Below are positions 39,401-55,894 of a stretch of 64,000 nucleotides of DNA, piece after piece. The stretch's first letter is position 1. Each line of letters begins with the position of its first letter. Source of the DNA: Candidatus Thiodiazotropha sp. (lineage in GTDB: Bacteria; Pseudomonadota; Gammaproteobacteria; Chromatiales; Chromatiaceae); contig OZ242974.1 of assembly GCA_965211775.1 (NCBI GenBank), positions 4,442,188 to 4,506,187 of the forward strand, written 5' to 3'. The position numbers and the translations under genes were made by a program. The notes below the pieces were generated by a model. That model saw nothing but the letters and a program-made list of their open reading frames with translations. It was not told the origin of the DNA and did not search any database.

Positions 39401-39450
39401 TAGGATTTTAAGGCCTGTTGACACTAATCCGTCGGAATGGGGAAACGGCC

Positions 39451-39603
39451 TCAATAGACGCCCTGCTGCGCATGCTCGCATTTACAGACCTTATAGGGAT
39501 CTTTCCAGCACATGATCTCCTTAAACTGAGCATCGCTCGAGCCCGGTTTGGCTTCAGCCTGCTGCTGTTGATCGGTATCAAGATCGGATTGTTTGGTCGT
39601 CAT
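39451..39603 (-). CDS. possible 50-aa hydrophilic Cys-containing peptide
   Basis: I hand-translated it as MTTKQSDLDTDQQQQAEAKPGSSDAQFKEIMCWKDPYKVCKCEHAQQGVY. A GAGGAGG sits ~12 nt upstream. The ORF is below the track cut-off, and I recognise no family. Confidence 0.25.
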   Translation of the reverse strand: MTTKQSDLDTDQQQQAEAKPGSSDAQFKEIMCWKDPYKVCKCEHAQQGVY

Positions 39604-39809
39604 TAATTTCCAATGCCTCCTCACACTGAGTCATACCGGCATCTGACGTCCACTCTTTTAAAAGCTTATTTATACTGTCCCTGAATCGGCTTGCCGGCCC
39701 TGCATCACTCATCGAAATGAGACGATGCTCATCTGAAACAATAGTCCATCAACTGCACAATTGTTGGTTTGATCGAAAAATCGAGCAGGATGATTCCTGA
39801 CCCTTGATG

Positions 39810-39986
39810 TTAGTCCCGCTCCTTCTGACTTGACGTGGAATGAGCGCAGGAACCACATCCCGAGCAGTTGTCCGAGGACGCTTCTCTCTCAGGATCGAGT
39901 CTGTTCAACCACAATTGGAATACCACCCAGCCTGCACACAAGGCCACTAATCCCAATATGGCTGACACGTGTATCCACATGGTCAT
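39810..39986 (-). CDS. 58-aa single-TM Cys-rich membrane protein, translationally coupled to rnfA
   Basis: I hand-translated it as MTMWIHVSAILGLVALCAGWVVFQLWLNRLDPEREASSDNCSGCGSCAHSTSSQKERD. Its ATG overlaps the rnfA TGA (ATGA). It is not in the ORF track because it is under 60 aa. Confidence 0.55.
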   Translation of the reverse strand: MTMWIHVSAILGLVALCAGWVVFQLWLNRLDPEREASSDNCSGCGSCAHSTSSQKERD

Positions 39987-40561
39987 GCCGCACTGAACAA
40001 ACCGGCAAATCCCATGAATGCCATGGAGAGTATACCGGCAATAATCAGGTTCATGGCAGTCCCTTTAATCAGTCGAGGCACTTCCGCCAGCTCGGTCTCC
40101 TCCCGCAATCCGGCCATCAGCACCAGAGCCAGGGTAAAACCCAACCCTGCCCCCAAAGCATAGGTCATGCCCTGTATGAATCCATACCCTTTGTTGGTGG
40201 CGAAGATGGCCAGACCGAGAATCGCGCAGTTGGTGGTGATCAGGGGCAGGAATATCCCCAATGCCTTGAACAGGCCCGGACTCAGCTTTTTTATCACCAT
40301 CTCGATGAATTGAACCGTGCTGGCAATCACCACGATAAAACTGATCAACCTTAGATAAGGTGCATAAATCAGAATATAGGTGTTGAGCAGCCAGGCGCAC
40401 AATGCGGTAATCAGCATCACGAATATGGTGGCCAGGCCCAATCGGAAGGCGGTTTCCAATCGCTGCGATACGCCCAGAAAAGGACACAAGCCGAGAAAAT
40501 AGGCCAATACAAAATTATTGATTAGCAGGGCGCTGATGAAAATCCACACAAGTTCGTTCAT
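39983..40561 (-). CDS. rnfA: Rnf electron transport complex subunit A
   Basis: The 192-aa protein has NNFVL..FLGLCPFLGVS and LPLITTNCAILG. Confidence 0.93.
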   Translation of the reverse strand: MNELVWIFISALLINNFVLAYFLGLCPFLGVSQRLETAFRLGLATIFVMLITALCAWLLNTYILIYAPYLRLISFIVVIASTVQFIEMVIKKLSPGLFKALGIFLPLITTNCAILGLAIFATNKGYGFIQGMTYALGAGLGFTLALVLMAGLREETELAEVPRLIKGTAMNLIIAGILSMAFMGFAGLFSAA

Positions 40562-41217
40562 GGTGCTTCAATCTCCATCTGATCCAGTTGTTGCGCCAGT
40601 CTGTCCTTACGCTCTTTCAGCCAGTTGAAGAAAAGCAATAAAAGGCCCAAGGTGATGAAACCGCCGGGCGGCAGGATCATGATCACCCAGGGTTCGAAGT
40701 TCTCACTGAAGAGTTTGAATCCGAACAGCGCTCCCTCTCCCAGTAATTCACGAACCGCACCCAGGGAGAACAGGGCGAACAGAAAACCACTGGCCATGCC
40801 CAGCGCATCCACCAGGGCGAAACGTACCGAGTTGCGAGAAGCAAAGGCCTCCTGCCGTCCCAGGATCATGCAGTTGGCCACGATCAAGGGTATGAAGGCC
40901 CCCAGCTCTTTGTGGACCTTTGGCATCAGCGCCTCAAGGGTAAAGTCGGTGACGGTGACAAAGGTTGCGATGATAATGATATACGTGGAGATACGTACCT
41001 GTTTGGGTATCCAGTTTTTCAGTGATGAAACGAAAAAACTCGAGGCCACCAGCACAAAAAAAGTCGCCCCTCCCATAACCAGTGCATTCATCGCAGAGTT
41101 GGTGACCGCAAGCATGGGACACATACCCAGCACTTGAACAAAAACCGGGTTGTCGCGCCAAAGCCCCTTGATGAACTCCTGATAAGCGTCTTGTTTTTTC
41201 TCAGGCATGCTCTTCAC
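40558..41217 (-). CDS. rnfE: Rnf electron transport complex subunit E
   Basis: The ORF has VQVLGMCPMLAVT and IPLIVANCMILGR. It shares an ATGA overlap with rnfA. Confidence 0.93.
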   Translation of the reverse strand: MKSMPEKKQDAYQEFIKGLWRDNPVFVQVLGMCPMLAVTNSAMNALVMGGATFFVLVASSFFVSSLKNWIPKQVRISTYIIIIATFVTVTDFTLEALMPKVHKELGAFIPLIVANCMILGRQEAFASRNSVRFALVDALGMASGFLFALFSLGAVRELLGEGALFGFKLFSENFEPWVIMILPPGGFITLGLLLLFFNWLKERKDRLAQQLDQMEIEAP

Positions 41218-41235
41218 CCTGTTTGAACAATAATC

Positions 41236-41862
41236 CTAGAAACGCTGTAACCACTGCTGGTTCGCCTGGTTGATAATCCGCACCACCGCCTTGGAGGAGA
41301 TAGTCGCCCCGGTGATGGCGTCAACCTCGTTCGGCGCGGCTTTGGCGCCTCGCTTCACGGTCACGATTTCCGGTTCGACGGATAAGGCATCGAAATTCGA
41401 AACGAACTCGGCATCCTTGTAGATCTTGTCCCCCAGACCCGGCGTTTCCCGGCTCTCGAGTATCTCCATGCCGACCACTTTGCGCTGCTTAGGCTGATAG
41501 CCATAGAGCAATCGAATGGTGTCCTGGAAACCGGGACCTGATCCGGGAATGGCATACCCCACCAAAACACCTTGCGCATCTTGGCCGCCGAAGACGAATT
41601 CCTCACCCTTCCCGACCTCTTCCACCGGCGTCAATCGACCATCCCGGTAGACCAATCGCTGCAGTTGCGTGGAGCCGGGTAACACTTTGAATACCGCCTC
41701 CTGCAAAACCTTCGCCTTATAGGCGGTAATAGTGGGCAGGGTGGCTTCAAATACGGAAACGATGATCAGGCCGGATAGCAGTCCTGCAAAGCCAAGGGTC
41801 GCCACCAAACGGGTGGATCCGGGTTCACTGACCTTTATCTGTTGTCGGCTCTGCTGATTCAA
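41236..41862 (-). CDS. rnfG: Rnf electron transport complex subunit G (FMN-binding)
   Basis: It has an N-terminal TM segment, a C-terminal DAITGATISSKAV flavinylation-type motif, and lies between rnfD and rnfE. Confidence 0.88.
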   Translation of the reverse strand: MNQQSRQQIKVSEPGSTRLVATLGFAGLLSGLIIVSVFEATLPTITAYKAKVLQEAVFKVLPGSTQLQRLVYRDGRLTPVEEVGKGEEFVFGGQDAQGVLVGYAIPGSGPGFQDTIRLLYGYQPKQRKVVGMEILESRETPGLGDKIYKDAEFVSNFDALSVEPEIVTVKRGAKAAPNEVDAITGATISSKAVVRIINQANQQWLQRF

Positions 41863-41869
41863 CTGAATG

Positions 41870-42877
41870 TCACTCCTTGCCGAACACGCGGGGCTGAGTG
41901 TAGCGGTCGATCAGTGGCGTGGCCGCATTCATCAACAAGATGGCGTACATCACCCCCTCGGGAAAACCGCCGAAAAGCCTGATCAGTACAACCAGCAGTC
42001 CGATACCTATGGCGAAGATCCAGGCGCCGCGCGGGGTCAGGGGGGATGTAACCGGATCCGTCGCCATATAGAAAGCCGCCAGCAACAATCCCCCGGATAA
42101 CAGGGTGAATAAAGGATCCGGATACCGCGCTGTATCGATGGCGTAAAGCACACCCGAAAAGAGTGCTGCTGATAGCATGATGCCCACCGGGATACGCCAG
42201 TCGATATCGCGACGCAACAGCAGATAGATCCCTCCCGCCAGCAACAACACCCCACTGGTCTCGCCGATACAGCCCGCGCTATTACCCAACGCCAAATCGA
42301 CCAGCGGGGTCGGCTGCTGCTCGAATTTCATCAATCCCAGGGGGGTGGCTGCGGATACCGCATCGTAGTGGGGTTGCATGAATGGCAGTGCGAAGTTGGA
42401 GGGATACCACAACAGAAAGCCTTCACCGCTTGCCTGGACACTCCAGGTCGTCATGGCATTCGGGAAGGTCGCGAGCAGGAAGGCCCGCCCGACCAGAGCC
42501 GGATTGAACAGGTTGTGTCCCAGCCCGCCCCAGATCACCTTGCCTATACCAATGGAGACTACCCCACCGAGAAAAGCCATCCACAGCGGTAGCGCGGGAG
42601 GCAGGGTCAGGCCCAGCAACAGCCCCGTCAGCACGCCGCTGCCATCCAGCAGCCGCTGCCATCGCTGGTCTCCCGGGGAGAAGAGCCATTCTGCAAGCAC
42701 CGCCCCCAAGACACTCGCCACAACAACCAGAAGCGCTCCCAGACCGAACAGCCAAATTCCAGCCAGAGTGGCTGGCAACAACGCATACAGCAGATCCTTC
42801 ATGGTCTGAGCGGTTGTCATCTCCTGTTTCAGCAGGGGGGATGGCTGCACCAGTAATCTCGGATCCTTGTCGTTCAT
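41870..42877 (-). CDS. rnfD: Rnf electron transport complex subunit D
   Basis: The 335-aa polytopic protein of the NqrB/RnfD type has YMATDPVTSP. Its start overlaps the rnfC stop (TGATG). Confidence 0.92.
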   Translation of the reverse strand: MNDKDPRLLVQPSPLLKQEMTTAQTMKDLLYALLPATLAGIWLFGLGALLVVVASVLGAVLAEWLFSPGDQRWQRLLDGSGVLTGLLLGLTLPPALPLWMAFLGGVVSIGIGKVIWGGLGHNLFNPALVGRAFLLATFPNAMTTWSVQASGEGFLLWYPSNFALPFMQPHYDAVSAATPLGLMKFEQQPTPLVDLALGNSAGCIGETSGVLLLAGGIYLLLRRDIDWRIPVGIMLSAALFSGVLYAIDTARYPDPLFTLLSGGLLLAAFYMATDPVTSPLTPRGAWIFAIGIGLLVVLIRLFGGFPEGVMYAILLMNAATPLIDRYTQPRVFGKE

Positions 42878-44217
42878 CAGTGCCTGCCCCGTTTACCGCG
42901 CAGCTCACTTTTAGCGCTGCGTATCAGTTGCACGATGGGAATACCCGAGGGACAGGAGTAGGTGCACGAGCCACACTCCACACACTCCGTGACATTGGCC
43001 TGTTTGATCTGATCGAACTGACGCGCTCTGGCCAGACGGGCCAGTTTGGACGGATTGAGAAAATAGGGGCATGCCTCCACACACCGACCACAGCGTATGC
43101 AGGGGTACTCCTTAGGACGAGCTGTCTGTTCCGCGGTAAAGGCCAGTATTCCGGAGCTGGACTTGATGATCGGCGCATCCAGGCTGGCAATGGGAGTACC
43201 CATCATGGGACCCCCCATGAGTACCTCTTTGGTATCCTGCTTGAGCCCGCCGCAGAATCGAAGCACCTCCCGGACGGGGGTACCCAGTGGGACGATCAGG
43301 TTGGCGGGATATTCAATACCGGGCCCTGATACCGTCACCATGCGGTCGATATAGGGCATGCCGGACTCGAAATAGTCAGCGATAGCGACAAGGGTGCTGA
43401 CATTGTTCATGATGATTCCCATGTCCGCCGCATGCAGTCCCTTGGGTATCTCTACATTCAGCAGGGATTTGATCATCATTTTGGAGTCCCCCTGTGGGTA
43501 TTTGACCCTCAGGGGAGCCACACGGAACGGCTTGCCGGAGGGGATACGCCTATCCAGGGCCTCGATGGCGTCCGGCTTGTTGAGTTCGATACCGAGAATG
43601 GACTCCTCGGCCCCCAACAGGGTGTGCAGAATCTCGACCCCCCGCAGTAACGCCTCAGGACGCTCCACCATGATTCGATGGTCGTTGGTCAGATAAGGTT
43701 CGCACTCGGCGCCGTTGGCAATCAGGTGTTTGATCTTCACACCTTCACGCAAAGAGTATTTGACATGCGCGGGAAGCGAAGCCCCTCCCAGCCCCACGAT
43801 GCCCGTCTGTTGAATAACGGAAACCAAATCCTCCAGTGAAAGTCCCCGCCAGTCGGGCGGCTGCTCAACATTGAGACGCTGGGTGGCATACAGATCGGCT
43901 TCGATCTCGATGGCCTGTTCATATCGTCCACCGGGAAAACGCCGTCTACCGATGGCCTTGACCCAGCCGGTGACCGGGCTATGCAGACTGGCGGATACGA
44001 ATGCCCCGGGCTCGGCAATCAGCTGACCCCGCCCTACCTGTTGCCCTGCCTCCACCACCGCCTTCGCGGGTGCTCCCAAGTGCTGATGCAACGGCAGTAT
44101 GTAGCGCTCAACAAAGGGCATTCTCTGGGTATGCAGGGCGGCGGTCCGGTGCTTGTATTCCTGCGGGTGAATACCGTGTGAGAAGCTGCGTTTGAACAGT
44201 GTGGAGAGCGTTGGCAT
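42877..44217 (-). CDS. rnfC: Rnf electron transport complex subunit C
   Basis: It has two 4Fe-4S motifs (CIRCGRCVEACP, CVECGSCTYSCP) and a GGIHP-type N-terminus. The start is chosen at 44217 (MPTLSTLFKRSFSHGIHPQ), with an alternative ATG at 44253. Confidence 0.92.
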   Translation of the reverse strand: MPTLSTLFKRSFSHGIHPQEYKHRTAALHTQRMPFVERYILPLHQHLGAPAKAVVEAGQQVGRGQLIAEPGAFVSASLHSPVTGWVKAIGRRRFPGGRYEQAIEIEADLYATQRLNVEQPPDWRGLSLEDLVSVIQQTGIVGLGGASLPAHVKYSLREGVKIKHLIANGAECEPYLTNDHRIMVERPEALLRGVEILHTLLGAEESILGIELNKPDAIEALDRRIPSGKPFRVAPLRVKYPQGDSKMMIKSLLNVEIPKGLHAADMGIIMNNVSTLVAIADYFESGMPYIDRMVTVSGPGIEYPANLIVPLGTPVREVLRFCGGLKQDTKEVLMGGPMMGTPIASLDAPIIKSSSGILAFTAEQTARPKEYPCIRCGRCVEACPYFLNPSKLARLARARQFDQIKQANVTECVECGSCTYSCPSGIPIVQLIRSAKSELRGKRGRH

Positions 44218-44224
44218 ATTGTGT

Positions 44225-47200
44225 TTACTGCGCCGGTTCCCTATACCCGGCAAGCTTCAACAGACGCTCATGCACCGCTTTGCGGGTCTCCTGTTGGAGT
44301 TGATCGGTTAGGTCACTGATGCGTTGTTCATACTTGTCCGCCTGCATCTGCAGCGCCTCTTCATGCTCTGCAGCCACGGCTGCTTGCGCCTCCTCGCGCA
44401 CCCGTGCGGTAAACGGCGTCACCAGTCCCGCCAGCTCCTGCAGCATGCGCCATGTCCGTTGCCGCTTCTCGGTGATCTCCAGCAAATGCCTGTCTATACT
44501 GAAACGCCGGACCTCATCCCCCTGCCGGTTCAGTTCAACGTAAACCGACTCCTCTACTCTCTCCCCGGCTGACAGACCGAGATACTCAGCAAGCCTTACA
44601 GCTTCCTCGTCACGATTGAGCGGTGAAAAATAGCCACGGAAGCGTGTCTCGCCGAGTGCCCAATCGACAGGTGTATACACCCCCACCCCGGCATCTCTTA
44701 CCCACGGCTCCGTAAGCGCCGGATTGCCCTGCAGACTGATCCGGGAGCCGAACACGCCTTCCGCTTGCGGATCGTATCGGAACAGGGGGAAGAGTCGGCT
44801 CATCACTGCCGTCCGGGCACGATGCAGTGTCTGATCGGGTGCGAAACCGTGTCGCGAGGGGCTCGGGGCATGCAAGTGCACCAGCGCCGGACCCTTGTGG
44901 GCCAGGGCAGACTGGATGCATGCTGCAAAATGCTCCCTATCACTGATTGAGGTCTGGGCAATAAATGACTCCCGCTGAACGAGCGACAGCAGCGCCAGAT
45001 CGATAGCCACGTCATCCACAGAGGTCAGCGGCGACTCCAGACCCGTCCGTTCTGCAAGCCCCAGATCCAGGTCGGCGAGCAATACTGTTTTTATCGGCAG
45101 CTCACTACCCAAAACCCGGATCAGCTGGCCTAATCCGTGACCTGCCAGCTGACCGCTGTCGCCCACCAGCAGCAGGGTTGGACACAATGCTCTCTCTTCA
45201 TCATCGAGATCGCGCCAGGTCATTGTCTCGAGATCGGACCAGAGGCGCGCCGCATCCGCGGACTGTTCCAATTCCGCACGCGCCTTGCGCATCAGCACGA
45301 AACCTTCCGTCGCCTGCCGCAGTTGGCCCTCCAGCAGACCGGCGGCCAACTGTGCACCGTCACCTGTGGCATCGAGTGTGACGGGTGTTGAGAAAGGGTT
45401 GTGAGGAAAACTACCGGCCCAGCCAACCACTGCACCTGGTGAAAGCACAAGGCTTACCCTGGCGCGCCCCATGTCCTGACGTCCACTGCTGAGTCGCCAG
45501 GCGAGATCGATCAGGTCACGGGCCAGATCCACCAGGCGGCGTAATCGGGCTGCATCCACCTGATTGCTGATGGCATCCTCCGCTTCACCGATCAGGCTGC
45601 TCATGTCAGCCTGCCTCGCGTCGCTCTTTTCCAGGCCGCGTGAGAGTGCATCCAGGTCATCGGCAGGAAGGGCATCCGCCAATAGAGCGCAGATCGATCC
45701 GGTGATTTTTTCCCGGGTTGTCTCGACCTGTTGCAGAAACGACTCAAACCGCGGTGTCTGTTGAGCCTCGACAATGGCAAGTGCCAGGCGCAGCGCCAAT
45801 TTCGCCCCGCTTCCGGGTTCGACGCCATCGCCACCGGCCATCGCCAACCCTGCGCTGTGCGCCAGATGGGCGGCGGCCGCCACACCGACATGCGGATCCT
45901 CTGCCAGCCTGCGAATCGTATTCAGCTCACTGTCGGGCAACCCATGCCACGCCTTCTGAATCCGGCGCGCTCGGGATAGAGATTGGGTACTTTGCGGCAT
46001 GAGCTGCAACGCTTGCTCTCCACAGGCCTGAATACAGATTCCGCAACCCTTGCAACCATCCGGCTCCACGGCGAGCGCCAATAATTCACCACTCCCCCTG
46101 TTTTCTGTGTCAGGTTCAATGAACATGGGATTGGTGACGGCAACCTGCAGACTGCCCATGTCGCTTCGCAACTGCTCTATACCCTGCGCAATCGCTTGTT
46201 TGCGGTCTTGAGGAAAGGGCAGTTTCTCTTTGATCCCGTCATAACTGATGACAAGCATCTCTTCCAGTGTGGAATAGCCCGTCTCCTGCTGTCGACAGAG
46301 TGAAATAATAGCGGCGGCGAGTTTCGAGGCCACCGGTCTGAGCGCCTCGGCGCCACTGCACCGGATTGCGGCATCCATCAGGCGCGTGGGGGAAATCGAG
46401 ACGGCCTTGATGGCAGAATCGGGACAGGCGCACCAGCAGTCGCCGCATCCGGTGCATAACAGCGGATTGAATTGCGGCAGTTGCTTGCGAAACCTGCTCA
46501 GATCACGAAATCCCGCTGACAAGGGTGGTACGGCCCCAACCGCGAGATAGGGATCAGGCGCCAGTTCACCGCTCTTGCCCTGTTTATACAATACCCCGAC
46601 CTGATCCCAGAACCTGGGCAGGCTGTCATAGGCGTCATCCAGGCTTCCCAATCGGCGAACCAGGGCCGGGACTTCATCGCCGACATCCGAAATCGAGCGC
46701 GCCGGAACCAGAGGAAGACGTTTCAGGCTGATCTCCCTGACCTGATCCATGCCCCCTTCGAAATGCTGCAAACAGGCATCGACATCGGCCACTGACTCTC
46801 CCAGCAGCTCTTCACGCAGACTCAGCAGTCTACGCGGTGTCGTCGTCAACCGCTCAGTCTTGATCAATACGGCGGAAACAGCGCCTAACAGATATTCATT
46901 CGGCAGGGATCTGGATTCCTCTGTCGGGGCCACTCTAAACAGGCGTATCCCGCTTTCCCTGATGTGGGCGCGTGCCTCCCTGGGCAGCTGCGTCCAAACC
47001 GATTCATCGGGAAGCGCGCTCTGCACAAGCAGCGTTCCGCCCTTCGCGAGGCCATGGTGCGGCATCAACCGCTGCATGCCGGTGGTCGTCACCAGTATCG
47101 ACAGATCCACTGGGGCGTCGTCACCGGGATCTCTAAGTTCATCGCTGCAGAAGCTGATCCGATCGCTGCAGACACCGCTCCAGGATTTGCTGAACAACGC

Positions 47201-48805: not shown

Positions 48806-49652
48806 AACGGCTCTCACTCTGAATCCGTGAACGGGCCCGGTTTGCGAACTGGCCCCCTTCCAACCATTGAATGGCGCCGGTAGGACAGCGGTAGGTCGCC
48901 GCAGGTCGGGCCGGTCCACCCCCTGAGTAGTCAACGACCGGCAGGTTATCCTTCATGTGGATCAGACCGGGCGCCGCATCCGCCACGCAGCGCCCACAGG
49001 CATCGCACGCCGTGGTGCAGAGCGCCACCGCCATATCACCGGCAAGGGGCGCCATGCATTGTACGAAGAGATGCTGGCTCAACGGCACCAGTTCGAACAG
49101 ATCCCTTGGACAGACATCCACACAATCACCACAGGCGGTACACTGCTCGATATCGACCACAGGCAACCCGTTTGAATTGGTAGTGATCGCATTGAAGCTG
49201 CAGGCTCGCTGACAGTCACCGAGGCCGAAACACCCCCAGGAGCAACCTTTGCCGCCGCCGGAAACCACGGATGCCGCAAGACAGCTTTCGAATCCCCTGT
49301 ATTCGGCAATCTGGTATGCCTGGCCTTTCCCCCCGGCACAATGCAGTCGCGCCACCCGCTTCTCTTGCTGCCCCGGATCCACATCCAGCAGTTCAGCCAC
49401 GGCATCGATCGTCTCCTGGCTTGCTACAGTGCACTTGCTCGGTGATGTCGTGAGTTGCACCAGCTGCTCGGCAAATGCATGGCACCCCGGTTGCCCACAG
49501 GCGCCGCAATTTGAACCGGGCAGCAGATCCTCGGTCTCTTCGATCCGGGGATCCTCCTGCACTTTCAGAAATCTGTAGGCCACCGCCAGGATAACCGCAA
49601 AAACCAGACCGATGCCGGTCATGATGGCGGGTGCGATAACAAAGCTGTTCAT
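48789..49652 (-). CDS. rnfB: Rnf electron transport complex subunit B (polyferredoxin type)
   Basis: It has an N-terminal TM segment, a CGACGQPGC cluster, and several additional Cys clusters (CTACGDCVDVCP and others). Confidence 0.88.
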   Translation of the reverse strand: MNSFVIAPAIMTGIGLVFAVILAVAYRFLKVQEDPRIEETEDLLPGSNCGACGQPGCHAFAEQLVQLTTSPSKCTVASQETIDAVAELLDVDPGQQEKRVARLHCAGGKGQAYQIAEYRGFESCLAASVVSGGGKGCSWGCFGLGDCQRACSFNAITTNSNGLPVVDIEQCTACGDCVDVCPRDLFELVPLSQHLFVQCMAPLAGDMAVALCTTACDACGRCVADAAPGLIHMKDNLPVVDYSGGGPARPAATYRCPTGAIQWLEGGQFANRARSRIQSESRYARTG

Positions 49653-52171
49653 TGGTTGAACGGCGCCGCTCGTTCAATCAATGAGTCCAGATCGGGCTCA
49701 TCGTGATTGAGGGGCTTCCCAGGATGAATGCATTTCGCCGGACAGAGTTCAGCCGCCTGCACCAGCTGAGCATAAGTGGCATTGCCGAGATCCCCGAGCA
49801 TGGCCTGCTTCTCGTCGTTATAGATGAAGAGCTGCGGATTGATCGGCAGGCAGTCATTGCAACTGGTGCAGAGAGGGGTATCGATCCAGGGGTCGTCAAA
49901 ACTTAGGCTCTCTTGTTCTTCTTCATCAGGCGGCTCGCTCTCCTCGGCTTCCTCGCTCTGTTGTTCCGGCATCACTTCATCACTGCCCATGGCGACTGGC
50001 CCGGAGGGCATGTCGCCGCGACGCACCCCCCCCTCGACATCCAGGCCAAGCAGCACATCCGTGAGTCGCTGCATGGCCTCGCCGGCGGCTTCGTTTCTCA
50101 CCCGCTCCACCTCTTCGGCATGTGCAGCCTGTATGCGAACCAGCTCGTTGCTGGCCAGCTCACGCTCCTCCGCACGGGTTTTTTCCACCGCCATATCGAC
50201 ATAGCGGTTGCGCACGCCCGCCATCTCCTGCAGGGTGTGCCAATAGTTGAGGCGGTCACGGCAAGCCAGCGCGAGCTCTCTCGAGATCACCACGCGGTGC
50301 AGCATGGCGTTGCCGTCGATGGCCCAGACAAACGGCACCCGTCTATAGGCCTCCTCCGGGCTCATGGCCAGATAGTCCTGTATCGATAACAGCCCGTCTG
50401 AATCGCAGCCGGCCGGGATCAGTCGAAAGTGGTCTCGTAGACGCTCGATCAGCAGGGCGTAATCGGCAAAGGTGAATGCCAGTTCTGTGGTGACACTATT
50501 GCCGTTGTCATCCAGGTACCGAAACGGGTGCAAGGGCCAGTCCCGATCAGCCTGTGGATTACCGCTGAAATCCATCCGCACCGCTGCCGAATCGCCCGCC
50601 TCCGGGTTGATGCGGAAAAAGGGGTGGGCCCGGCTTTCGATGGCGGCGCCAGCCACCAACCAGGCATTCAGCGGAAGCAGTCTGCCGGGTGGACGCATGC
50701 CCGTATTGATGACATGCAGACTGGTGCGGGTGGCGTCCAAAGCCATCAGGTAGCACTTCAACAGGTGCTGATGCCGGGCAGCGGATGACTGGTCGACAAC
50801 GGCTTGACGATGACTGATGCCCAGATAACTCAATTCGGTCCGGTAACTCTTGAGCGGATCGCCATCGAGAGCGGCACCGGGATCGGCATGCGCCAACACC
50901 CGGATCAGAATCTGTACAGGCCGCCCCGAGCTGAGCAGCCGGGAAAAGGTACGCAATCCCTCGCCGGCCACCTGATCGGCCGATCCCAACGCGATCACCG
51001 AGGGCACCATTCGCAGCTCTTCTTGCGAAAAGGCCTCCCAGCTGAAATTGGCGAACCAGGGATCGTGAATCTCCGGGTTGTAGATGGCGTCGATCTCCAG
51101 CTGTGCGATACGCACCGCACTGTAGATCGAGGTCAGCTTCTCAGCCTCGCGATCGAATATCTCCATCGCTTTGGCGCAGGGATCATGATCGGTGATCTCC
51201 TGGCAGAAATCGACCTCCTGAAGCCAGGGATCGGTAAGCGTGCCAATGTGCAGAAAACGGACCAGCACCGGGTCGGGATGCCAACCTTGCATGATCTCCA
51301 GCGCATGTTCGATACGCTCGCGCCGCTCCTCTGAAATAGACCGGGTGCCCCGGGAATGATCCATCACCGCGGAGAGTATCACGGGGTCGAAGCGTTCACC
51401 GCCCAGGCCGACACTGTCTCGGGCCATCTTGGGTTCGATCGACTCATCGGATTTGATCCATTCGACTTCGAGGAGCTCCTTCAGGCCGCGTATGGAGGCA
51501 TCGATTCGCTCCTGAAAACGTTGTTGCATGTGGGTAAACTGACTGCGTACCGCATGAATCAGAAGATGGAGTGCGGGATAGCGGCCATAACCCAGCAGCT
51601 GGGCGCCTTCCGGCACAGACTGCAGCAACAGGTTCAGGTCATCTTCCAGTCTCTTTCTCTCCTGTTCATCGAGACCTAGATGCGTCTGTAGCGCGATGCA
51701 GGACTCCGCCAATGTCGCTCCGGCATCCACCGGGCCTTCGCGTTGCTGCAACGACTTGCGAATATGATGCTCCAGCCATGGCAGATGGTGTTTCAGAATC
51801 CTTGCCTTCCCCTCCTCCGGTGCATTGGCGGCCACGGCCTCCTGAAGCCATTGCACAAGGGGACAGGCAAGTTCTTCGGCTGTCTGATAGGTCTCTTCGG
51901 TATTGGGAGGAAAAAGGAACAGGGGGTAGTCATAGCGTAGCCTGGACGTATCGCGGTAGGGATCGAGCAGGGCCGGGAGATAGTCGTCGCCAATCGATTC
52001 CAACTGTGCCTTGGCCGCAGGATCACCCAGGTGGAAATGGCGCAGAAGAAACATCAACTCACGGGTTGCACGGGCATCCTTGACTGCCGTCGGCAGGGAT
52101 GGCACACGCCCCGATTCATTGCTGGGCAACTGGGTCGATTGCTCCTCTGCGGCCTTTTGTATCGTTGTCAT
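49649..52171 (-). CDS. 840-aa uncharacterised protein: PFOR domain-VI-like region, coiled coil, acidic linker and C-terminal ferredoxin-like domain
   Basis: It is a paralog of the C-terminal half of the 44225..48805 protein (VIALGSADQVAGEGLRTFSRLLSSGRPVQILI; SRAHPFFRINPEAGD; YWHTLQEMAG). The C-terminus is PLCTSCNDCLPINPQLF...AELCPAKCIHPG. Its stop overlaps the rnfB ATG (ATGA). Confidence 0.7.
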   Translation of the reverse strand: MTTIQKAAEEQSTQLPSNESGRVPSLPTAVKDARATRELMFLLRHFHLGDPAAKAQLESIGDDYLPALLDPYRDTSRLRYDYPLFLFPPNTEETYQTAEELACPLVQWLQEAVAANAPEEGKARILKHHLPWLEHHIRKSLQQREGPVDAGATLAESCIALQTHLGLDEQERKRLEDDLNLLLQSVPEGAQLLGYGRYPALHLLIHAVRSQFTHMQQRFQERIDASIRGLKELLEVEWIKSDESIEPKMARDSVGLGGERFDPVILSAVMDHSRGTRSISEERRERIEHALEIMQGWHPDPVLVRFLHIGTLTDPWLQEVDFCQEITDHDPCAKAMEIFDREAEKLTSIYSAVRIAQLEIDAIYNPEIHDPWFANFSWEAFSQEELRMVPSVIALGSADQVAGEGLRTFSRLLSSGRPVQILIRVLAHADPGAALDGDPLKSYRTELSYLGISHRQAVVDQSSAARHQHLLKCYLMALDATRTSLHVINTGMRPPGRLLPLNAWLVAGAAIESRAHPFFRINPEAGDSAAVRMDFSGNPQADRDWPLHPFRYLDDNGNSVTTELAFTFADYALLIERLRDHFRLIPAGCDSDGLLSIQDYLAMSPEEAYRRVPFVWAIDGNAMLHRVVISRELALACRDRLNYWHTLQEMAGVRNRYVDMAVEKTRAEERELASNELVRIQAAHAEEVERVRNEAAGEAMQRLTDVLLGLDVEGGVRRGDMPSGPVAMGSDEVMPEQQSEEAEESEPPDEEEQESLSFDDPWIDTPLCTSCNDCLPINPQLFIYNDEKQAMLGDLGNATYAQLVQAAELCPAKCIHPGKPLNHDEPDLDSLIERAAPFNQ

Positions 52172-52225
52172 TTCAGAAAAACTCTCGTTGCGATCAGGAG
52201 TTCGTCAAGCTTTCCGATTTCGTGA

Positions 52226-53179
52226 TCAGATAGTGATTCGGTCCAACACTGCGTTGAAGCCCTCCAGCCTTTTCTCAGGCGTCATCTCCACACCCTGACT
52301 CGACAGATCCTCGTAACACTGGGCATCCGGGTTATGGTAAAGCAGTCCCAACGGCAGTCTCGCGGTGTCTGCTGCGAGCTGGAAGGCCCGGGCCAGATCG
52401 GAGGGATCGTGTTCCGTCCGATTGGGGAATTGACGGCTGACACTCTTGTCCACTGGAATTCCCCGCTGATGCTGCAACAGCAGGAACCGGTCCGGGTTCT
52501 GCTGCAGCTCCTTTGAAAAACTGTCCGCATAGACCGGGCAACGCTGAATAATGCGGACAAACCCAGTTCCCTTGTGTCGGTATGCGGCTTTTAATGTTTC
52601 GTAGAGTAAAGGGGGATTCCAGTCAGCCACCTGTGCCACGAAAGAGACGTTGGTAACACCCAGCGTTACCGTCAACGGATTATGCGGCTCGAGTATGGCG
52701 CCGAAAGGATGGGTGTTGGTCTTGAAGCCATGGGGGCTGGTGGGAGATGTCTGGGCCTTGGTCAAGCCGTAGATGGCATTGTCAAACACCATCAGAGTCA
52801 TATCCATGTTGTAGCGCAGAGCATGGATCCAATGAGCGGTGCCGATAGAAAAACAATCACCGTCTCCCGTCGCCACCCACACATCCAGTTCAGGCCGTCT
52901 GGCCTTGATGCCGCAGGCAACGGGCAGCGCACGTCCGTGCAGGCCGTGAAAACCGAACGTGCCGAGGTAATGGGGCATACGGCTGGAACAGCCGATACCG
53001 GAAACACATACGGACATCTCCGGCCGCTGCTGCTCGTCGCGCAAGACCTTTTGTGCGGCTGTCAGCACCGCATGATCACCGCAGCCGGGACACCATCTGG
53101 CCTCGCCGCCCGCATAGTCGCCCATGGTGAAATAGCGCTCAAAGACTTCGAGTGACCAGTCAGCTTTCAATCCGAACAT
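52226..53179 (-). CDS. korB: 2-oxoglutarate/2-oxoacid:ferredoxin oxidoreductase beta subunit (TPP-binding)
   Basis: It has WCPGCGDH and the TPP motif GDGDCFSIG...MVFDNAIYGLTKAQ. Confidence 0.9.
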   Translation of the reverse strand: MFGLKADWSLEVFERYFTMGDYAGGEARWCPGCGDHAVLTAAQKVLRDEQQRPEMSVCVSGIGCSSRMPHYLGTFGFHGLHGRALPVACGIKARRPELDVWVATGDGDCFSIGTAHWIHALRYNMDMTLMVFDNAIYGLTKAQTSPTSPHGFKTNTHPFGAILEPHNPLTVTLGVTNVSFVAQVADWNPPLLYETLKAAYRHKGTGFVRIIQRCPVYADSFSKELQQNPDRFLLLQHQRGIPVDKSVSRQFPNRTEHDPSDLARAFQLAADTARLPLGLLYHNPDAQCYEDLSSQGVEMTPEKRLEGFNAVLDRITI

Positions 53180-55080
53180 CAGCCCTCTCCTTGCAATGCT
53201 TCGAGTCTTTTTACGAGTTCATTCTTGATCATTCCCGGCTGCAGCGGGTGTCCATATACCACCGACCAGCAATCGATATCGATCAGGGTATGGGCGCGTA
53301 ACAGCAGGGCAAGCTGGGCATAACGGCGTGTCTCGTCGGTAATCAGGGGTGAACCGGGATCATCACTGTAGTTGATCTCCACCGTCATCACTTTGCGAAA
53401 ACCCTTGAATATCTCTTTCAGCCCGGGCTCCATGGGTAAAATAAAGCGAAGATGCAGGGAAGAGACTCGATGGCCGTCAGCACGCGCACGATCCACCGCC
53501 TCCTCAATGGCGCCAAGGGTTGAGCCCCACCCGACCACCAGCAGATCGCCGGAATCATCGCCGTGCACGACGGGGGGTTTCAGGGTACTGGCCAGGGCGG
53601 CAAATTTACGACTGCGCATATTCGCGCCGTGCTGGTTTGAATCGGAATCGTAGGCCACCTTGCTGTGGTTGGTGTGGGCAAGGCCGGTGAGGATGTACTG
53701 ACCACCCTGCATGCCCGGTACGGGTCGGGGGGAGAGCCCACTCTCCGAATCCCAATTGTAGGGAGGAATATGCTCATCCCAGTCCGATTGGTCGATGGGC
53801 GGCGCCATCCAGTCCAGGCTTGGCTCCGGTCTCTGGTAGGGTTGAACCCCGGTTGCCAGATTCGCGTCTGTCAGCAGTATCACCGGAGTTCGGAACGCTT
53901 CGGCAAGCCGTCGCGACATCACCACAAAATGCAGGCACTCCTCAATCGTGGCTGCGGCGATCACCACCTTGGGTGCATCGCCAGGCTCCCCGAAAAGCGC
54001 AGCCAGCAAGTCACCCTGCTCTACCTTGGTGGGCAGGCCGGTGGATGGGCCGCCCCGCTGCACGACACACACCACCAGGGGGAGTTCCGCCATCACCGCC
54101 AATGCCAGCATCTCTGTCTTAAGGGCCAGTCCCGGTCCTGAGGTGATGGTACAGGCGGTCTTTCCGGCAAACGAGGATCCAATGGCGAAACCGGCGGCGG
54201 CTATCTCATCCTCGGCCTGATGCACAAAGCCCCCAACCTCATGGTAGACATCCGCCAGGTAGTGGGATGCGGAGGTCGCCGGCGTGATCGGGTACATGGA
54301 AACCAGTTCCATACCGGATGCCATCACCCCGAGTCCCAATGCTGTATTCCCATTGGTGACGATATAACGCTTCCCCTCCCTGTCCTCTGCCGGCTGAGCT
54401 GGAACCTGGTAACTCAGACCCAGTCTCTCTGCGGCAAACCGGTAACCGGCGTCGAACAAGCGGTGATTCATGTCGATCGCCTTGTCGCCCTTGCGTTTGA
54501 AGGTGGTGGCGATCTCGCCTTTGGCAAGTTCCACATCCCGCGAATAGATACGGCACAACATCCCCAGCACGAACATATTCTTACCACGCCGGGGATTCGG
54601 CGTGATCTCCAGACAGGCCGTTTCAATCGGCAATTCGTGAACGATCAGGCCGTTTCTACGAAACTCGGCAACCGCCTTCGCATACTGCTCACGGATTTCA
54701 GGCACGCTGTCGTCGCGCCATTTATCCTCCAGCAGCACTTGGGTGCCCTCTTTGTATGCGCCGTTGACGATGCGTGAATAGAGAACCTGTTCGTTGAAGG
54801 CGACCACAATATCGGCTTCGTCGCCCATATTGGTAACCGCATGTGACGCCAGACGAATCCGGATACCGCTGGCGCCGGCCGGTGAGCGTGCGGGGGATTG
54901 AATCTCGGCGGGAATGATCTCCACCGTCCAGACACCATTGCCCATTCGGGCGGATACCGTGCCAAAGGTCTGGCCGGCTTTTTGTGCGCCTTCACCGGAG
55001 TCGCTGACGATCTCCACGATGTGCTCACGGGTTAGCGTCAACCTCGGAGCAAGCTCCTCGGCAGTTGTTGCATCCACCAC
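53179..55080 (-). CDS. korA: 2-oxoglutarate/2-oxoacid:ferredoxin oxidoreductase alpha subunit (gamma-alpha fusion type)
   Basis: The 633-aa protein has an N-terminal gamma-like domain (GEGAQKAGQ) followed by an alpha domain (MYPITPATS, QAEDEIAA). It overlaps korB by 1 nt. Confidence 0.9.
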   Translation of the reverse strand: MVDATTAEELAPRLTLTREHIVEIVSDSGEGAQKAGQTFGTVSARMGNGVWTVEIIPAEIQSPARSPAGASGIRIRLASHAVTNMGDEADIVVAFNEQVLYSRIVNGAYKEGTQVLLEDKWRDDSVPEIREQYAKAVAEFRRNGLIVHELPIETACLEITPNPRRGKNMFVLGMLCRIYSRDVELAKGEIATTFKRKGDKAIDMNHRLFDAGYRFAAERLGLSYQVPAQPAEDREGKRYIVTNGNTALGLGVMASGMELVSMYPITPATSASHYLADVYHEVGGFVHQAEDEIAAAGFAIGSSFAGKTACTITSGPGLALKTEMLALAVMAELPLVVCVVQRGGPSTGLPTKVEQGDLLAALFGEPGDAPKVVIAAATIEECLHFVVMSRRLAEAFRTPVILLTDANLATGVQPYQRPEPSLDWMAPPIDQSDWDEHIPPYNWDSESGLSPRPVPGMQGGQYILTGLAHTNHSKVAYDSDSNQHGANMRSRKFAALASTLKPPVVHGDDSGDLLVVGWGSTLGAIEEAVDRARADGHRVSSLHLRFILPMEPGLKEIFKGFRKVMTVEINYSDDPGSPLITDETRRYAQLALLLRAHTLIDIDCWSVVYGHPLQPGMIKNELVKRLEALQGEG

Positions 55081-55330
55081 ATCATTGGCCCTCGTTACAA
55101 AGAAGTGAAACGATTTCCTGCGCCCTGTTAATTCTGGTTCTGTCAGGGCTTCGTCATGAAAAAAGCCTTGTATCTTCCCTGCTGTTTATGTCCACATTAA
55201 ACGCAGTGGTATTAAGAAGTCAATTTTGAAAAATCCGATCGGCTAGCGAATCGGGCAGAACCAGGGCAAGAATTGACCGGTCTTTTTACAGCTAAAACTT
55301 CGGCTTACCGGCAACCAGCATCAGTGGCCT

Positions 55331-55870
55331 TCACCACATCAAATCGTCAGGCACGATATAGTCGGCATAGGGATCGTCGCCATCATCCTGCTGTTCACGA
55401 TCATTGCGTACAACGATACAATCGCGGTTTCTCATACTGATTTTGTCTGCCACTGCGGTAGGGATGACGTCATAGCGATCATCTATCTTGACAATCGCCA
55501 GCCGCCCGCCGATCAGTTGGCCATGAATCTCGTCTGTGATAAGAATCCGCCGCACCTTGGCTTCGTCATTGAAATGGTAAACCACCTCGCCCTCCTCCAA
55601 CGAAAGACGATTCATCTCAATCAACTGCCTGATCTGGGCGGCAATCGCTTTTTGCTTCGCCTGCTCATTCTTTTTCTGATTCAGCGCACGATCCCGTTCG
55701 ACATCCTCGGCTTTCGCCTGTTTTGCCCAACGCACGGCTTGGTCTTCCGTTTTCTGCTTGCGATGCCGCTGCTCTTTCTCCCTGCGTTGTTTTGCCTTCT
55801 TCGCCTTGTTGACTTTGTTCTTGTCAGTTAAGCCGGCCTTGAGCAGCTGATCCTGTAGTGAGTTAGCCAA
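55331..55870 (-). CDS. DUF2058-family (YaiL-like) protein
   Basis: It has the N-terminus SLQDQLLKAGL.DK, a lysine-rich coiled region, and an acidic C-terminus ending DDLMW. Confidence 0.7.
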   Translation of the reverse strand: MANSLQDQLLKAGLTDKNKVNKAKKAKQRREKEQRHRKQKTEDQAVRWAKQAKAEDVERDRALNQKKNEQAKQKAIAAQIRQLIEMNRLSLEEGEVVYHFNDEAKVRRILITDEIHGQLIGGRLAIVKIDDRYDVIPTAVADKISMRNRDCIVVRNDREQQDDGDDPYADYIVPDDLMW

Positions 55871-55894
55871 TACAATCTCCGGTACTAGACAAAA

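Follow-up and report, generated by a model that had tools for sequence, protein, structure and literature searches.

Two PFOR-derived proteins in a conserved korAB-rnf gene cluster of Candidatus Thiodiazotropha

The window analysed here, a 64,000-nucleotide stretch from Candidatus Thiodiazotropha, a sulfur-oxidising clam symbiont, encodes two large paralogous proteins that descend from pyruvate:ferredoxin oxidoreductase (PFOR). These proteins, hereafter the giant and X840, lie among the genes for a two-subunit 2-oxoacid:ferredoxin oxidoreductase (KorAB) and for the ion-translocating Rnf complex. Both proteins lack the thiamine-diphosphate/Mg site and the proximal [4Fe-4S] cluster of PFOR and retain clusters for electron transfer, both are under purifying selection, and the gene order is maintained across phyla. 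We propose, at roughly even odds (about 0.5), that the two proteins have no catalytic role and serve as iron-sulfur adaptors between KorAB and Rnf within one conserved transcription unit.

Gene content and layout

The cluster comprises eleven open reading frames at 39810-55080 in the order korA-korB-X840-rnfB-giant-rnfC-D-G-E-A-orf58 (Table 1). The initial annotation had described eleven same-strand genes with coupling-type junctions, and this description is confirmed, with the minus strand as the coding strand. All of the overlaps that it listed can be read in the sequence: korA and korB share 1 nt in TGATG, X840 and rnfB meet in ATGA, rnfB and the giant overlap by 17 nt, rnfC and rnfD form TGATG, and rnfE/rnfA and rnfA/orf58 are both ATGA junctions. 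The other spacings are 7 nt from the giant to rnfC (provided that rnfC starts at ATG 44217), 7 nt from rnfD to rnfG and 18 nt from rnfG to rnfE. korB and X840 do not overlap and are separated by 54 nt. The start of the giant at ATG 48805, which yields the 1526-aa protein, is shared in position by its homologues. A weak hairpin beyond orf58 is a possible operon end; it is only suggestive, since at least as many such sites in this region are expected after shuffling.

Table 1 Features of the cluster, with positions in the window
Feature	Position	Strand	Description
korA	53179..55080	-	633 aa; alpha subunit (fused gamma+alpha) of two-subunit 2-oxoacid:ferredoxin oxidoreductase
korB	52226..53179	-	317 aa; TPP- and [4Fe-4S]-binding beta subunit
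X840	49649..52171	-	840 aa; PFOR-derived, predicted non-catalytic; paralogue of giant C-terminal half
X840 acidic flexible linker	49901..50044	-	aa about 710-757; pLDDT <50 in both models
X840 C-terminal single-cluster ferredoxin domain	49652..49894	-	CxxCxxC...CP; Fer4_13
rnfB	48789..49652	-	287 aa; membrane-anchored polyferredoxin subunit; Pfam FeS (PF04060) and Fer4
giant	44225..48805	-	1526 aa; PFOR-derived, without TPP/Mg or proximal-cluster motifs
giant domains I-II (POR_N and PFOR_II)	47486..48709	-	aa 33-440; E 3.5e-21 and 1.2e-12
giant ferredoxin-like domain	46022..46456	-	two CxxCxxCxxxC motifs, C784-C794 and C918-C928; insert of roughly 120 aa between them
giant degenerate PorB-like module (PFOR domain VI/VII) and C-terminal long helix	44246..45361	-	aa 1149-1520
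rnfC	42877..44217	-	NADH/FMN subunit; Pfam RnfC_N, Complex1_51K, SLBB
rnfD	41870..42877	-	TIGR01946 339, cutoff 207
rnfG	41236..41862	-	Pfam FMN_bind, 64 bits; contains DAITGATISS
rnfE	40558..41217	-	TIGR01948 239, cutoff 213
rnfA	39983..40561	-	TIGR01943 241, cutoff 229
orf58	39810..39986	-	small; one N-terminal transmembrane helix, CxGCGxC tail; ATGA-coupled to rnfA
weak terminator-like hairpin and T-run	39786..39799	-	just 3' of orf58 stop

By its sequence, KorAB is a 2-oxoacid:ferredoxin oxidoreductase with all cluster and TPP motifs intact. KorA matches POR, POR_N and PFOR_II in Pfam and exceeds the TIGR03710 cutoff (488.9 versus 482.75), and its best solved relative is the Magnetococcus marinus OGOR (MmOGOR; 6n2n_A, E 2e-81). 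KorB matches TPP_enzyme_C at 88 bits, and carries the motifs WCPGCGD, SGIGCS, TGDGD...DNAIYGLTKAQ and RCPVY, all of which line up with those of StOFOR (5b46_B). Judged from similarity only, the substrate is most likely 2-oxoglutarate. The enzyme has no delta or ferredoxin subunit of its own.

Rnf couples ferredoxin:NAD+ oxidoreduction to ion translocation. As judged from its genes the complex is complete, with all six subunits encoded and each matching its own family; RnfB and RnfC exceed their family cutoffs (TIGR01944, 80.4 versus 68.7; TIGR01945, 495 versus 246), and RnfG scores 90.7 against TIGR01947, under the cutoff of 102. The orf58 product matches no Pfam family, and its homologues directly follow rnfA in many loci, including those of Riflebacteria (L082) and a metagenome (L085).

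Two proteins derived from PFOR

The gene between rnfB and rnfC had been annotated initially as an approximately 1530-aa PFOR-like gene, with profile searches suggested for both large proteins; PFOR descent is upheld for each. The giant matches POR_N, PFOR_II and Fer4 in Pfam and aligns colinearly with PFOR, in five segments with Escherichia coli YdbK and likewise with 6cin, so that domains I-II, III, V and VI are covered. It has no Pfam match to TPP_enzyme_C and scores 153 against TIGR02176, far below the cutoff of 911. Only ten cysteines are conserved, of which eight lie within the two ferredoxin-type motifs; these eight are invariant in 18 sequences, align with the cluster motifs of YdbK and are also kept in giants from Riflebacteria, Acidobacteriota and metagenomes.

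The PorB-like module of the giant, aligning to PFOR 960-1106 and YdbK 955-1104, is altered at three motifs: GGDG has become VG[DSGN][SAGD], SNTGG has become DLGL and SPC has become an invariant APSP. Neither the GDG...N signature for thiamine diphosphate and Mg nor any of the four cysteines of the proximal cluster is kept, these positions being replaced or unconserved, with the same losses in the Riflebacteria, Acidobacteriota and metagenome giants. In domain I, the equivalent of the PFOR substrate arginine (R139) is invariant among gammaproteobacterial members, and the position of the TPP-activating glutamate (E87) holds Glu in only 14 of 18 of them; both residues are lost in giants of distant phyla. 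The kept arginine and mostly kept glutamate could represent a residual or altered ligand site. A GGDGxE[PA]GSG motif, C439 and C1208 are also invariant in the giant.

X840, initially read as a PFOR fragment joined to a ferredoxin, proves to be a paralogue of the C-terminal half of the giant with a PorB-like fold. Its sole Pfam match is Fer4_13 (30 bits, cutoff 24.5), with none to TPP_enzyme_C, and the PFOR descent of its body is revealed by profile and structure comparison. With hhalign, aa 60-711 of X840 align to aa 754-1520 of the giant (probability 100%, E 1.9e-52), and a Foldseek search with the AF2 model (pLDDT 90.5; structure predictions were of single chains only) returned PorB 9bt4_C (E 3e-7) and PFOR 6cin as top matches. 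Beyond a Glu/Asp-rich linker of variable length, the C-terminal domain resembles Desulfovibrio africanus ferredoxin I (1dax, E 1.4e-5; 1fxr, TM 0.83). Its cysteines C768, C771, C774 and C810 are invariant across 101 sequences, in which no further cysteine outside this domain is conserved. Within the PorB-like fold of the family, E385 and R514 are invariant and H369, R455 and Q461 nearly so. X840 homologues of other phyla retain an N-terminal POR_N/PFOR_II region. No membrane anchor is apparent in the sequence of either large protein or in the AF2 model of X840.

Conservation and a candidate electron path

Whether the large genes are syntenic with rnf elsewhere had been posed initially as a test of their association, and such synteny is seen in many genomes of several phyla. 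We compared 80 genome loci that contain X840, many of them truncated by contig ends. Of those with enough sequence, 56 of 69 have korB immediately upstream of X840 and 54 of 68 have rnfB immediately downstream; the giant comes next after rnfB in 53/53 and rnfC next after the giant in 37/45. The complete order is found in 34 of the 80, and the identical order surrounds all seven distant representatives of the X840 family that were looked up, including those of Riflebacteria and Acidobacteriota (7/7). This arrangement is far beyond chance. Where clusters are split, rnfB stays joined to the giant and korAB to X840. In Beggiatoaceae X840 is apart from kor and rnf, and in tubeworm symbionts rnfCDGEA is not downstream of the giant; tight co-location is therefore not obligatory.

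Purifying selection acts on all eleven genes in the four genomes compared, with dN/dS of 0.07-0.12 for X840, 0.12-0.20 for the giant and 0.14-0.21 for orf58. Although the loss of catalytic motifs might suggest decaying PFOR relics riding in the operon, which the initial annotation had named as a refuting outcome, these selection and conservation data refute that reading: neither large gene has internal stops in the four genomes, full-length homologues occur in hundreds of clusters, and in the symbiont of Escarpia laminata the transcript levels of their homologues resemble those of ATP synthase (PMC6315080 Table S1).

In the adaptor reading, the giant, with two [4Fe-4S] clusters, and X840, with one cluster in its tethered ferredoxin domain, would pair through their paralogous PorB-like/C-terminal modules, in the manner of the paired subunits of a PFOR homodimer. 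The giant would associate with RnfB and X840 with KorAB, together forming a dedicated iron-sulfur route that connects the KorB cluster with Rnf. The whole unit may then operate as an ion-coupled 2-oxoglutarate:NAD+ oxidoreductase independent of the free ferredoxin pool, conserving energy on 2-oxoglutarate oxidation in the forward direction or, in reverse, using NADH and the ion gradient to drive succinyl-CoA carboxylation. Both directions are equally permitted by the sequence, which does not decide between them, and the reverse flow suggested initially is one of the two. Dedicated electron modules with a predicted docking on Rnf fit the data because of the rnfB-giant and korAB-X840 sub-modules and the loss of catalytic motifs. 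Counting against the adaptors are the korB/X840 gap, which has no translational coupling, the split clusters of Beggiatoaceae and tubeworm symbionts, the domain-I Arg and mostly kept Glu of gammaproteobacterial giants, the 2-oxoglutarate specificity of KorAB, which is judged from similarity only, and the invariant GGDGxE[PA]GSG and several invariant polar residues of the degenerate fold, which the proposal leaves unaccounted for. If correct, it would wire 2-oxoglutarate chemistry directly to NADH and membrane potential.

The splitting of the cluster in some lineages, together with the exclusively ferredoxin-type clusters and the missing membrane anchors, speaks for a reading in which the genes are co-regulated and their products form no complex, the giant and X840 moving electrons among Rnf, Kor and other consumers of ferredoxin (nitrogenase, for example), either as large soluble iron-sulfur carriers or as oxygen-protective or regulatory partners. 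We consider this unlikely, if worth serious attention: keeping a PFOR scaffold of roughly 1500 aa, with its paralogous modules of the dimerisation type, is a high price for a simple electron carrier, the overlapping rnfB and giant are never separated in the loci compared, and gene order is identical across phyla. The improbable reading of the giant as a genuine, divergent PFOR (pyruvate synthase), with Rnf recycling a free ferredoxin pool for two co-located carboxylases, was published for tubeworm symbionts, where the giant is named por and taken as functional (Rubin-Blum et al. 2019, PMC6315080). Database names including "pyruvate ferredoxin oxidoreductase", the well-conserved POR_N and PFOR_II and the invariant R139 agree with it, whereas the TIGR02176 score, the lacking TPP_enzyme_C, GDG...N motif and proximal-cluster cysteines, and the same-operon distant homologues without the domain-I Glu and Arg speak against it. 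There is a similarly small chance that the giant and X840 have gained, on the PFOR scaffold, a novel catalytic or ligand-binding role that does not involve TPP and through which a non-2-oxoacid substrate supplies electrons to Rnf or takes them from it. The invariant residues of both families and purifying selection over the full length would suit such a role; however, Pfam and TIGR profiles recognise no cofactor or catalytic domain besides Fer4, the intact KorAB already provides the substrate-level reaction, and the conserved residues could equally well lie at interfaces.

Comparison with known systems

The architecture is already known in part from Rubin-Blum, Dubilier and Kleiner 2019 (PMC6315080), who listed korA, korB, por-like, rnfB and por as "rTCA cycle cluster 2" of vestimentiferan tubeworm symbionts and linked the por genes to rnf clusters. 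The genes and their order are those of the window, with por-like corresponding to X840 and por to the giant, as also seen in the E. laminata symbiont (locus L063); in the tubeworm symbionts sucCD follows the giant, whereas rnfCDGEA follows it here. That account does not mention the loss of motifs, that the giant and X840 are paralogues, or the conservation across phyla.

Characterised KorAB enzymes share their domain order, single [4Fe-4S] site and intact TPP site with the KorAB of the window but use free ferredoxin, whereas this enzyme is encoded in an rnf operon beside a tethered-ferredoxin protein. Compared with PFOR (PFOR/NifJ/YdbK; 1b0p, 6cin), the giant has its domains in the same order (I-II-III-V-VI-VII) and keeps both clusters of the ferredoxin domain, lacks the GDG...N motif and the proximal cluster, and adds two inserts (about 120 and about 100 aa) and the C-terminal long helix; X840 keeps the PorB-like fold and has, besides, neither the clusters of domain V nor, in Gammaproteobacteria, domains I-II.

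As in the Rnf complexes of Acetobacterium woodii, Clostridium tetanomorphum (7zc6) and Azotobacter vinelandii, the window encodes all six subunits with family-level scores, among them an RnfB of the long polyferredoxin type and an FMN-binding RnfG. Known operons are ordered rnfABCDGE(H) or rnfCDGEAB, whereas the order here is B-[giant]-C-D-G-E-A, in which the gene for the giant overlaps the end of rnfB and lies ahead of rnfC, with korAB and a second PFOR-derived gene added upstream and a conserved Cys-rich mini-protein downstream. The open-access literature searched yielded no account of an Rnf hard-wired to a substrate dehydrogenase. By analogy only, the fold and the complex being unrelated, a precedent for a pseudo-enzyme subunit in a respiratory complex is offered by NuoG/Nqo3 of Complex I, whose C-terminal domain has a molybdopterin oxidoreductase fold that lost its cofactor and now forms a structural or iron-sulfur part of the complex.

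An operon of kor, rnf and PFOR-derived genes

Eleven consecutive minus-strand ORFs run from korA to orf58, a 58-aa reading frame that follows rnfA, and two of them encode large PFOR-derived proteins: X840, between korB and rnfB, and a protein between rnfB and rnfC that we refer to as the giant. Direct reading of the sequence bears out the tight junctions listed in the initial annotation: korA/korB and rnfC/rnfD form TGATG, X840/rnfB, rnfE/rnfA and rnfA/orf58 form ATGA, and rnfB overlaps the giant gene by 17 nt. A gap of 54 nt separates korB from X840, and the remaining gaps measure 7-18 nt. Every gene named in that annotation was also confirmed by Pfam and NCBIfam. Consensus scans of 39000-56500 found promoter- and terminator-like sites in counts not above those of shuffled sequence, with weak hairpins only, just beyond both cluster ends, and an Rfam scan of 38000-57000 returned zero matches.

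The operon is bracketed by an IS200-like Y1 and an IS1595-family transposase gene, with a DUF2058 gene between the IS200 copy and korA. Elsewhere in the window lie four RTX ORFs, two of which encode very large RTX/HCBP-repeat proteins of 1183 and 1932 aa and two of which are smaller; next to them is a type I secretion pair made up of a C39-peptidase ABC transporter and an HlyD-family protein. Housekeeping genes of the window include ftsH, carAB and, at its edge, a gene for a NuoD-like complex I 49-kDa subunit.

Coordinates of the operon, of other features in the window and of features at related loci
Feature	Positions	Strand	Remark
Operon	39810-55080	-	eleven ORFs
korA	53179-55080	-	633 aa
korB	52226-53179	-	317 aa
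X840	49649-52171	-	840 aa
rnfB	48789-49652	-	287 aa
giant	44225-48805	-	1526 aa, counted from ATG
GGDGxE[PA]GSG motif	45805-45834		giant aa 991-1000
rnfC	42877-44217	-
rnfD	41870-42877	-
rnfG	41236-41862	-
rnfE	40558-41217	-
rnfA	39983-40561	-
orf58	39810-39986	-	58 aa
IS200-like Y1 transposase	56003-56431	+
DUF2058 gene	55331-55870	-
IS1595-family transposase	38383-39321	-
RTX region and type I secretion pair	18234-27659, 31417-33397, 33447-37295	-
NuoD-like subunit	6-1289	-	window edge
ftsH	6741-8672	-
carAB	12409-17241	-
orf58 counterpart	L082 18885-19094
orf58 counterpart	L085 23314-23475
NspV and N6 DNA methylase genes between rnfB and giant	L092 3408-5519		Ca. Thiosymbion oneisti
Second rnf cluster	L026 1739-4592		opposite strand
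Second rnf cluster	L033 1500-4384		opposite strand

KorAB is an intact enzyme of the two-subunit type, because the alpha-family score of KorA and the cluster and TPP motifs of KorB are all in place. KorA scores 488.9 with TIGR03710 (2-oxoacid:acceptor oxidoreductase alpha family; cutoff 482.75). Its substrate may be 2-oxoglutarate: the closest solved relative is the OGOR of Magnetococcus marinus (E = 2e-81), and no equivalog model is at cutoff. KorB scores 229.9 with TIGR02177, under the cutoff of 261.9, and 88 bits with TPP_enzyme_C; it carries CPGCG, GIGCS, the thiamine-diphosphate motif GDGD...N and RCP with the fourth cysteine, and each of these motifs lines up with its counterpart in a solved OFOR beta subunit. 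The pair thereby combines the features of a two-subunit OFOR, namely an alpha subunit with gamma and alpha parts and a beta subunit with the TPP motif and four cluster cysteines. Enzymes of the two-subunit KorAB type hold a single cluster and have no ferredoxin-like delta subunit.

Subunits A, B, C, D, G and E of Rnf are all encoded in the operon, with NCBIfam scores (cutoffs in brackets) of 241 (229) for rnfA, 80 (69) for rnfB, 495 (246) for rnfC, 339 (207) for rnfD and 239 (213) for rnfE; rnfG reaches 90.7, slightly under its cutoff of 102, and Pfam FMN_bind 64 versus 22. The orf58 product consists of an N-terminal transmembrane helix and a CxGCGxC tail and belongs to no Pfam family. Its homologues lie directly 3' of rnfA in Gammaproteobacteria, Riflebacteria and a metagenome lineage. 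The protein could be an additional small subunit of this Rnf variant, or a partner that handles metals or clusters for it.

Motif loss and common ancestry of the two large proteins

The giant is colinear with the PFOR of M. thermoacetica and with E. coli YdbK, our canonical reference for motif comparison. Five segments align: domains I-II, each of the two domain V cluster motifs, the C-terminal half of domain VI and, weakly, domain III. The Pfam profiles proposed in the initial annotation divide, with POR_N (E = 3.5e-21), PFOR_II (E = 1.2e-12) and Fer4-type motifs found in the giant and TPP_enzyme_C matching neither the giant nor X840. With the PFOR equivalog TIGR02176 the giant attains 153 bits versus a cutoff of 911, and X840 has no match. 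Both proteins lack the GDG-X(25-30)-N TPP/Mg motif of the PP domain: where YdbK has GGDG and SNTGG, the giant reads VG[DSGN][SAGD] and DLGL, and the corresponding place in X840 reads ALGSADQ. Both also lack the four domain VI cysteines of the proximal [4Fe-4S] cluster. C1208 is the only conserved cysteine in this region of the giant, the fourth cluster position is an invariant APSP, and the CSGCGE and ATGC motifs of YdbK face non-cysteine residues under both alternative alignments.

Ten cysteines are conserved across an 18-member alignment of the giant family. Eight of these form two invariant CxxCxxCxxxC motifs in domain V (C784/787/790/794 and C918/921/924/928), with an unusual insert of about 120 residues between the two; C439 and C1208 are invariant too. 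A second, family-specific insert of about 100-150 aa between the ferredoxin-like and PorB-like parts carries GGDGxE[PA]GSG followed by [AE][KR]LA, a motif that does not vary among 18 gammaproteobacterial giants and that other phyla largely retain. Its derivation from the CxGCGE loop of PFOR is ambiguous, as CSGCGE falls at different places in two MAFFT runs, with no cysteine either way. The same catalytic motifs are missing from giant-type proteins in the same operon of Riflebacteria, Acidobacteriota and metagenomes, and the domain-I glutamate and arginine are mostly kept in gammaproteobacterial giants and gone in those of distant phyla. Judged by its motifs, the giant is a PFOR derivative without the defining catalytic features that has retained the ferredoxin-domain clusters.

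X840 is more reduced in terms of recognizable domains, and Pfam finds none of the other PFOR-family domains in it, only a C-terminal single-cluster ferredoxin domain (aa 763-816; Fer4_13 30 bits versus a cutoff of 24.5) with CxxCxxC...CP, which resembles D. africanus ferredoxin I (1dax, E = 1.4e-5; 1fxr, TM 0.83, rmsd 1.3). The body of the protein is nevertheless a paralogue of the giant: aa 375-653 match giant aa 1194-1461 by BLAST (E = 2e-16), and a profile-profile comparison with a 101-sequence profile extends the match to aa 60-711 and 754-1520, respectively (E = 1.9e-52), with both domain V cluster motifs deleted in X840. An AF2 model from the 101-sequence alignment (pLDDT 90.5, pTM 0.81) has as its top Foldseek matches the beta or PP domains of the OFOR family, led by M. 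acetivorans PorB (E = 3e-7), along with M. thermoacetica PFOR, oxalate oxidoreductase beta and OGOR beta; a model from 16 close sequences reached a pLDDT of 60.6 and matched in the ferredoxin domain only. When the single KorB sequence was compared with the giant and X840 profiles in hhalign, the matches were not significant, with a register that agrees with the HMMER alignments.

Among the 101 sequences, the X family has no GDG motif and no conserved cysteine outside the ferredoxin domain, and its degenerate PP fold holds invariant or nearly invariant polar residues. Residues 710-757 of X840 are acidic, variable and disordered, and the ferredoxin domain is therefore tethered. X proteins of other phyla measure 1300-1565 aa and retain an N-terminal POR_N/PFOR_II region, domains I-II being present only in these non-gammaproteobacterial fusion forms. 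X and the giant are therefore duplicates of one PFOR-like ancestor, the gammaproteobacterial X having lost its front half.

Conservation, expression and earlier description

Candidatus Thiodiazotropha is a gill symbiont of lucinid clams, and X840 is 100% identical to a "Ca. Thiodiazotropha sp." protein and 98% identical to its counterpart in Ca. T. endolucinida. Scanning one genome per species, we found X840 relatives in at least 256 genomes, and mapped gene order by tblastn in the best 80 loci, which belong to Thiodiazotropha, Sedimenticolaceae, Chromatiaceae, Thiohalomonadaceae, Thiosymbion, tubeworm symbionts and Beggiatoaceae. Within these, X840 has korB immediately 5' in 56 of 69 loci and rnfB immediately 3' in 54 of 68; the next gene after rnfB is the giant in 53 of 53, and the next after the giant is rnfC in 37 of 45. 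All ten genes stand in the full order in 34 of 80 loci, early contig ends being common. In broken clusters of Thiorhodococcus, Parabeggiatoa and Thiosymbion, rnfB and the giant stay paired, with two mobile-type genes (NspV and an N6 DNA methylase) inserted between them in Ca. Thiosymbion oneisti. The latter locus also has toxin-antitoxin and integrase genes after rnfC, illustrating cluster break-up in symbiont genomes. Several of the loci that have no rnfB-giant pair next to X840, among them those of Thiorhodococcus minor and Thiosymbion, keep korAB directly 5' of X840. In Beggiatoaceae X840 has only unrelated genes around it, and Pfam scans beside two stand-alone copies (L055, L029) found unrelated neighbours in place of functional partners.

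In an exhaustive HMMER search, 2015 cluster representatives (50% identity) match the X family with E of 1e-3 or better, and 911 of them with E of 1e-30 or better. All seven distant representatives looked up, among them one MAG each of Riflebacteria and Acidobacteriota, an unclassified bacterium and several metagenome contigs, lie within korA-korB-X-rnfB-giant-rnfCDGEA, sometimes with a small ORF 3' of rnfA or with ApbE and hemerythrin genes upstream. Homologues of both large genes thus co-occur with rnf in several phyla, as the initial annotation's reading had demanded, and the operon is real and more widespread than that annotation could tell.

The genes upstream of korA vary. A NuoF-like gene, 23-25% identical to RnfC and equivalent to the "nuoF*" of Rubin-Blum 2019, occupies this position in L042, L044, L050, L058, L061, L063, L065, L068, L072 and L078; ApbE (a flavin transferase) and hemerythrin replace it in Acidobacteriota and one metagenome lineage (L083-L086), and the window has neither. 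Two MAGs carry a second, divergent rnf cluster just upstream of korA (L026, L033), its rnfA/E/D about 33-42% identical, and therefore have more than one Rnf.

The large genes are also under constraint. Against four Thiodiazotropha-group genomes, dN/dS is 0.07-0.12 for X840, 0.12-0.20 for the giant, 0.14-0.21 for orf58 and 0.00-0.18 for the kor and rnf genes, with no internal stops in the compared genes. [quoted passage not shown]

The "rTCA cycle cluster 2" of that symbiont was listed as sucD, sucC, por, rnfB, por-like, korB, korA, nuoF*, frdx*, ferredoxin and gltA (PMC6315080), matching the gene order of the corresponding locus here (L063); the adjacency was therefore noted before by Rubin-Blum, Dubilier and Kleiner 2019, who read it as a genuine PFOR plus Rnf. 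The initial annotation had left open whether the architecture was already described, and it was in part, in the supplement of this one paper. Four points were absent from the open-access literature that we searched: that the giant and X840 are paralogues, that the TPP and proximal-cluster motifs have been lost, that the cluster is fully fused with rnfCDGEA, and that it is conserved across phyla. In that literature on rnf together with PFOR, korAB or OGOR in sulfur oxidisers, the cluster is given by Rubin-Blum et al. 2019 alone; papers on Thiomargarita, Ifremeria, Kentron, Riftia co-expression and Ferrigenium treat Rnf and OGOR in generic terms.

A candidate link between KorAB and Rnf

The locus is best classed as an Rnf system into which KorAB and two pseudo-PFOR iron-sulfur subunits are integrated. 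We infer, on good grounds, that KorAB is biochemically coupled to Rnf, and assign a probability of about 0.5 to the giant and X840 acting as non-catalytic Fe-S links between them. By motif, two electron-transfer clusters are kept in the giant and one, tethered, in X840; rnfB pairs with the giant throughout, and korAB frequently with X840. That both are instead co-regulated soluble carriers would suit the retained clusters and is unlikely given this pairing. We consider it improbable that the giant is a genuine PFOR, a reading consistent with its POR_N and PFOR_II matches and at odds with its lost TPP and proximal-cluster motifs. Equally improbable is a new non-TPP function on the old PFOR scaffold, which could draw on the invariant GGDGxE[PA]GSG motif and the polar residues of X. 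Decay of the large ORFs into pseudogenes, which the initial annotation had named as fatal to its idea, is contradicted by dN/dS and ruled out by purifying-range values, stop-free frames and transcribed homologues.

In the favoured reading of Fe-S links, the giant and X840 would form a heterodimer through their paralogous PorB-like/C-terminal modules, in the way that PFOR monomers dimerise; the giant would dock on RnfB, and the tethered ferredoxin of X840 would serve the KorB cluster. Electrons could then pass privately between NAD+/NADH and 2-oxoglutarate/succinyl-CoA + CO2, with ion translocation coupled to the transfer. From textbook redox potentials, 2-oxoglutarate oxidation would be exergonic enough for ion pumping, and carboxylation would need the gradient. 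Tubeworm symbionts have no gene for 2-oxoglutarate dehydrogenase E1 (Rubin-Blum et al. 2019, PMC6315080), which fits an oxidative role in those symbionts. Run oxidatively, the system would substitute an ion-pumping step for the non-energy-conserving 2-oxoglutarate dehydrogenase step. Run reductively, it would let microaerobic sulfur oxidisers power ferredoxin-level carboxylation by NADH and membrane potential while keeping the low-potential ferredoxin pool from oxygen. Either direction bears on the TCA or reverse-TCA cycle of chemosynthetic symbionts (lucinid, tubeworm, nematode) and purple sulfur bacteria. Furthermore, proteins of about 1500 aa of this kind are widely mis-annotated as "pyruvate ferredoxin oxidoreductases", and metabolic reconstructions should not treat them as pyruvate synthases; the X840 family is large, uncharacterised and spread over several phyla (about 2000 clusters at 50% identity).

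Canonical rnf operons read rnfABCDGE(H) or rnfCDGEAB without inserts, whereas the order here is rnfB-giant-rnfC-D-G-E-A-orf58, which many genomes keep. In the usual view, Rnf trades electrons with a pool of diffusible ferredoxin and KorAB uses free ferredoxin; two added PFOR-derived Fe-S proteins without catalytic motifs suggest a direct electron path instead. More tentatively, the operon may encode an unrecognised class of respiratory or CO2-fixing supercomplex, in which a pseudo-dimer of giant and X840 with a swinging, tethered ferredoxin bridges KorAB and RnfB to give an ion-translocating 2-oxoglutarate:NAD+ oxidoreductase without free ferredoxin. Just as complex I carries its own dehydrogenase module, such a supercomplex would be its Rnf counterpart.
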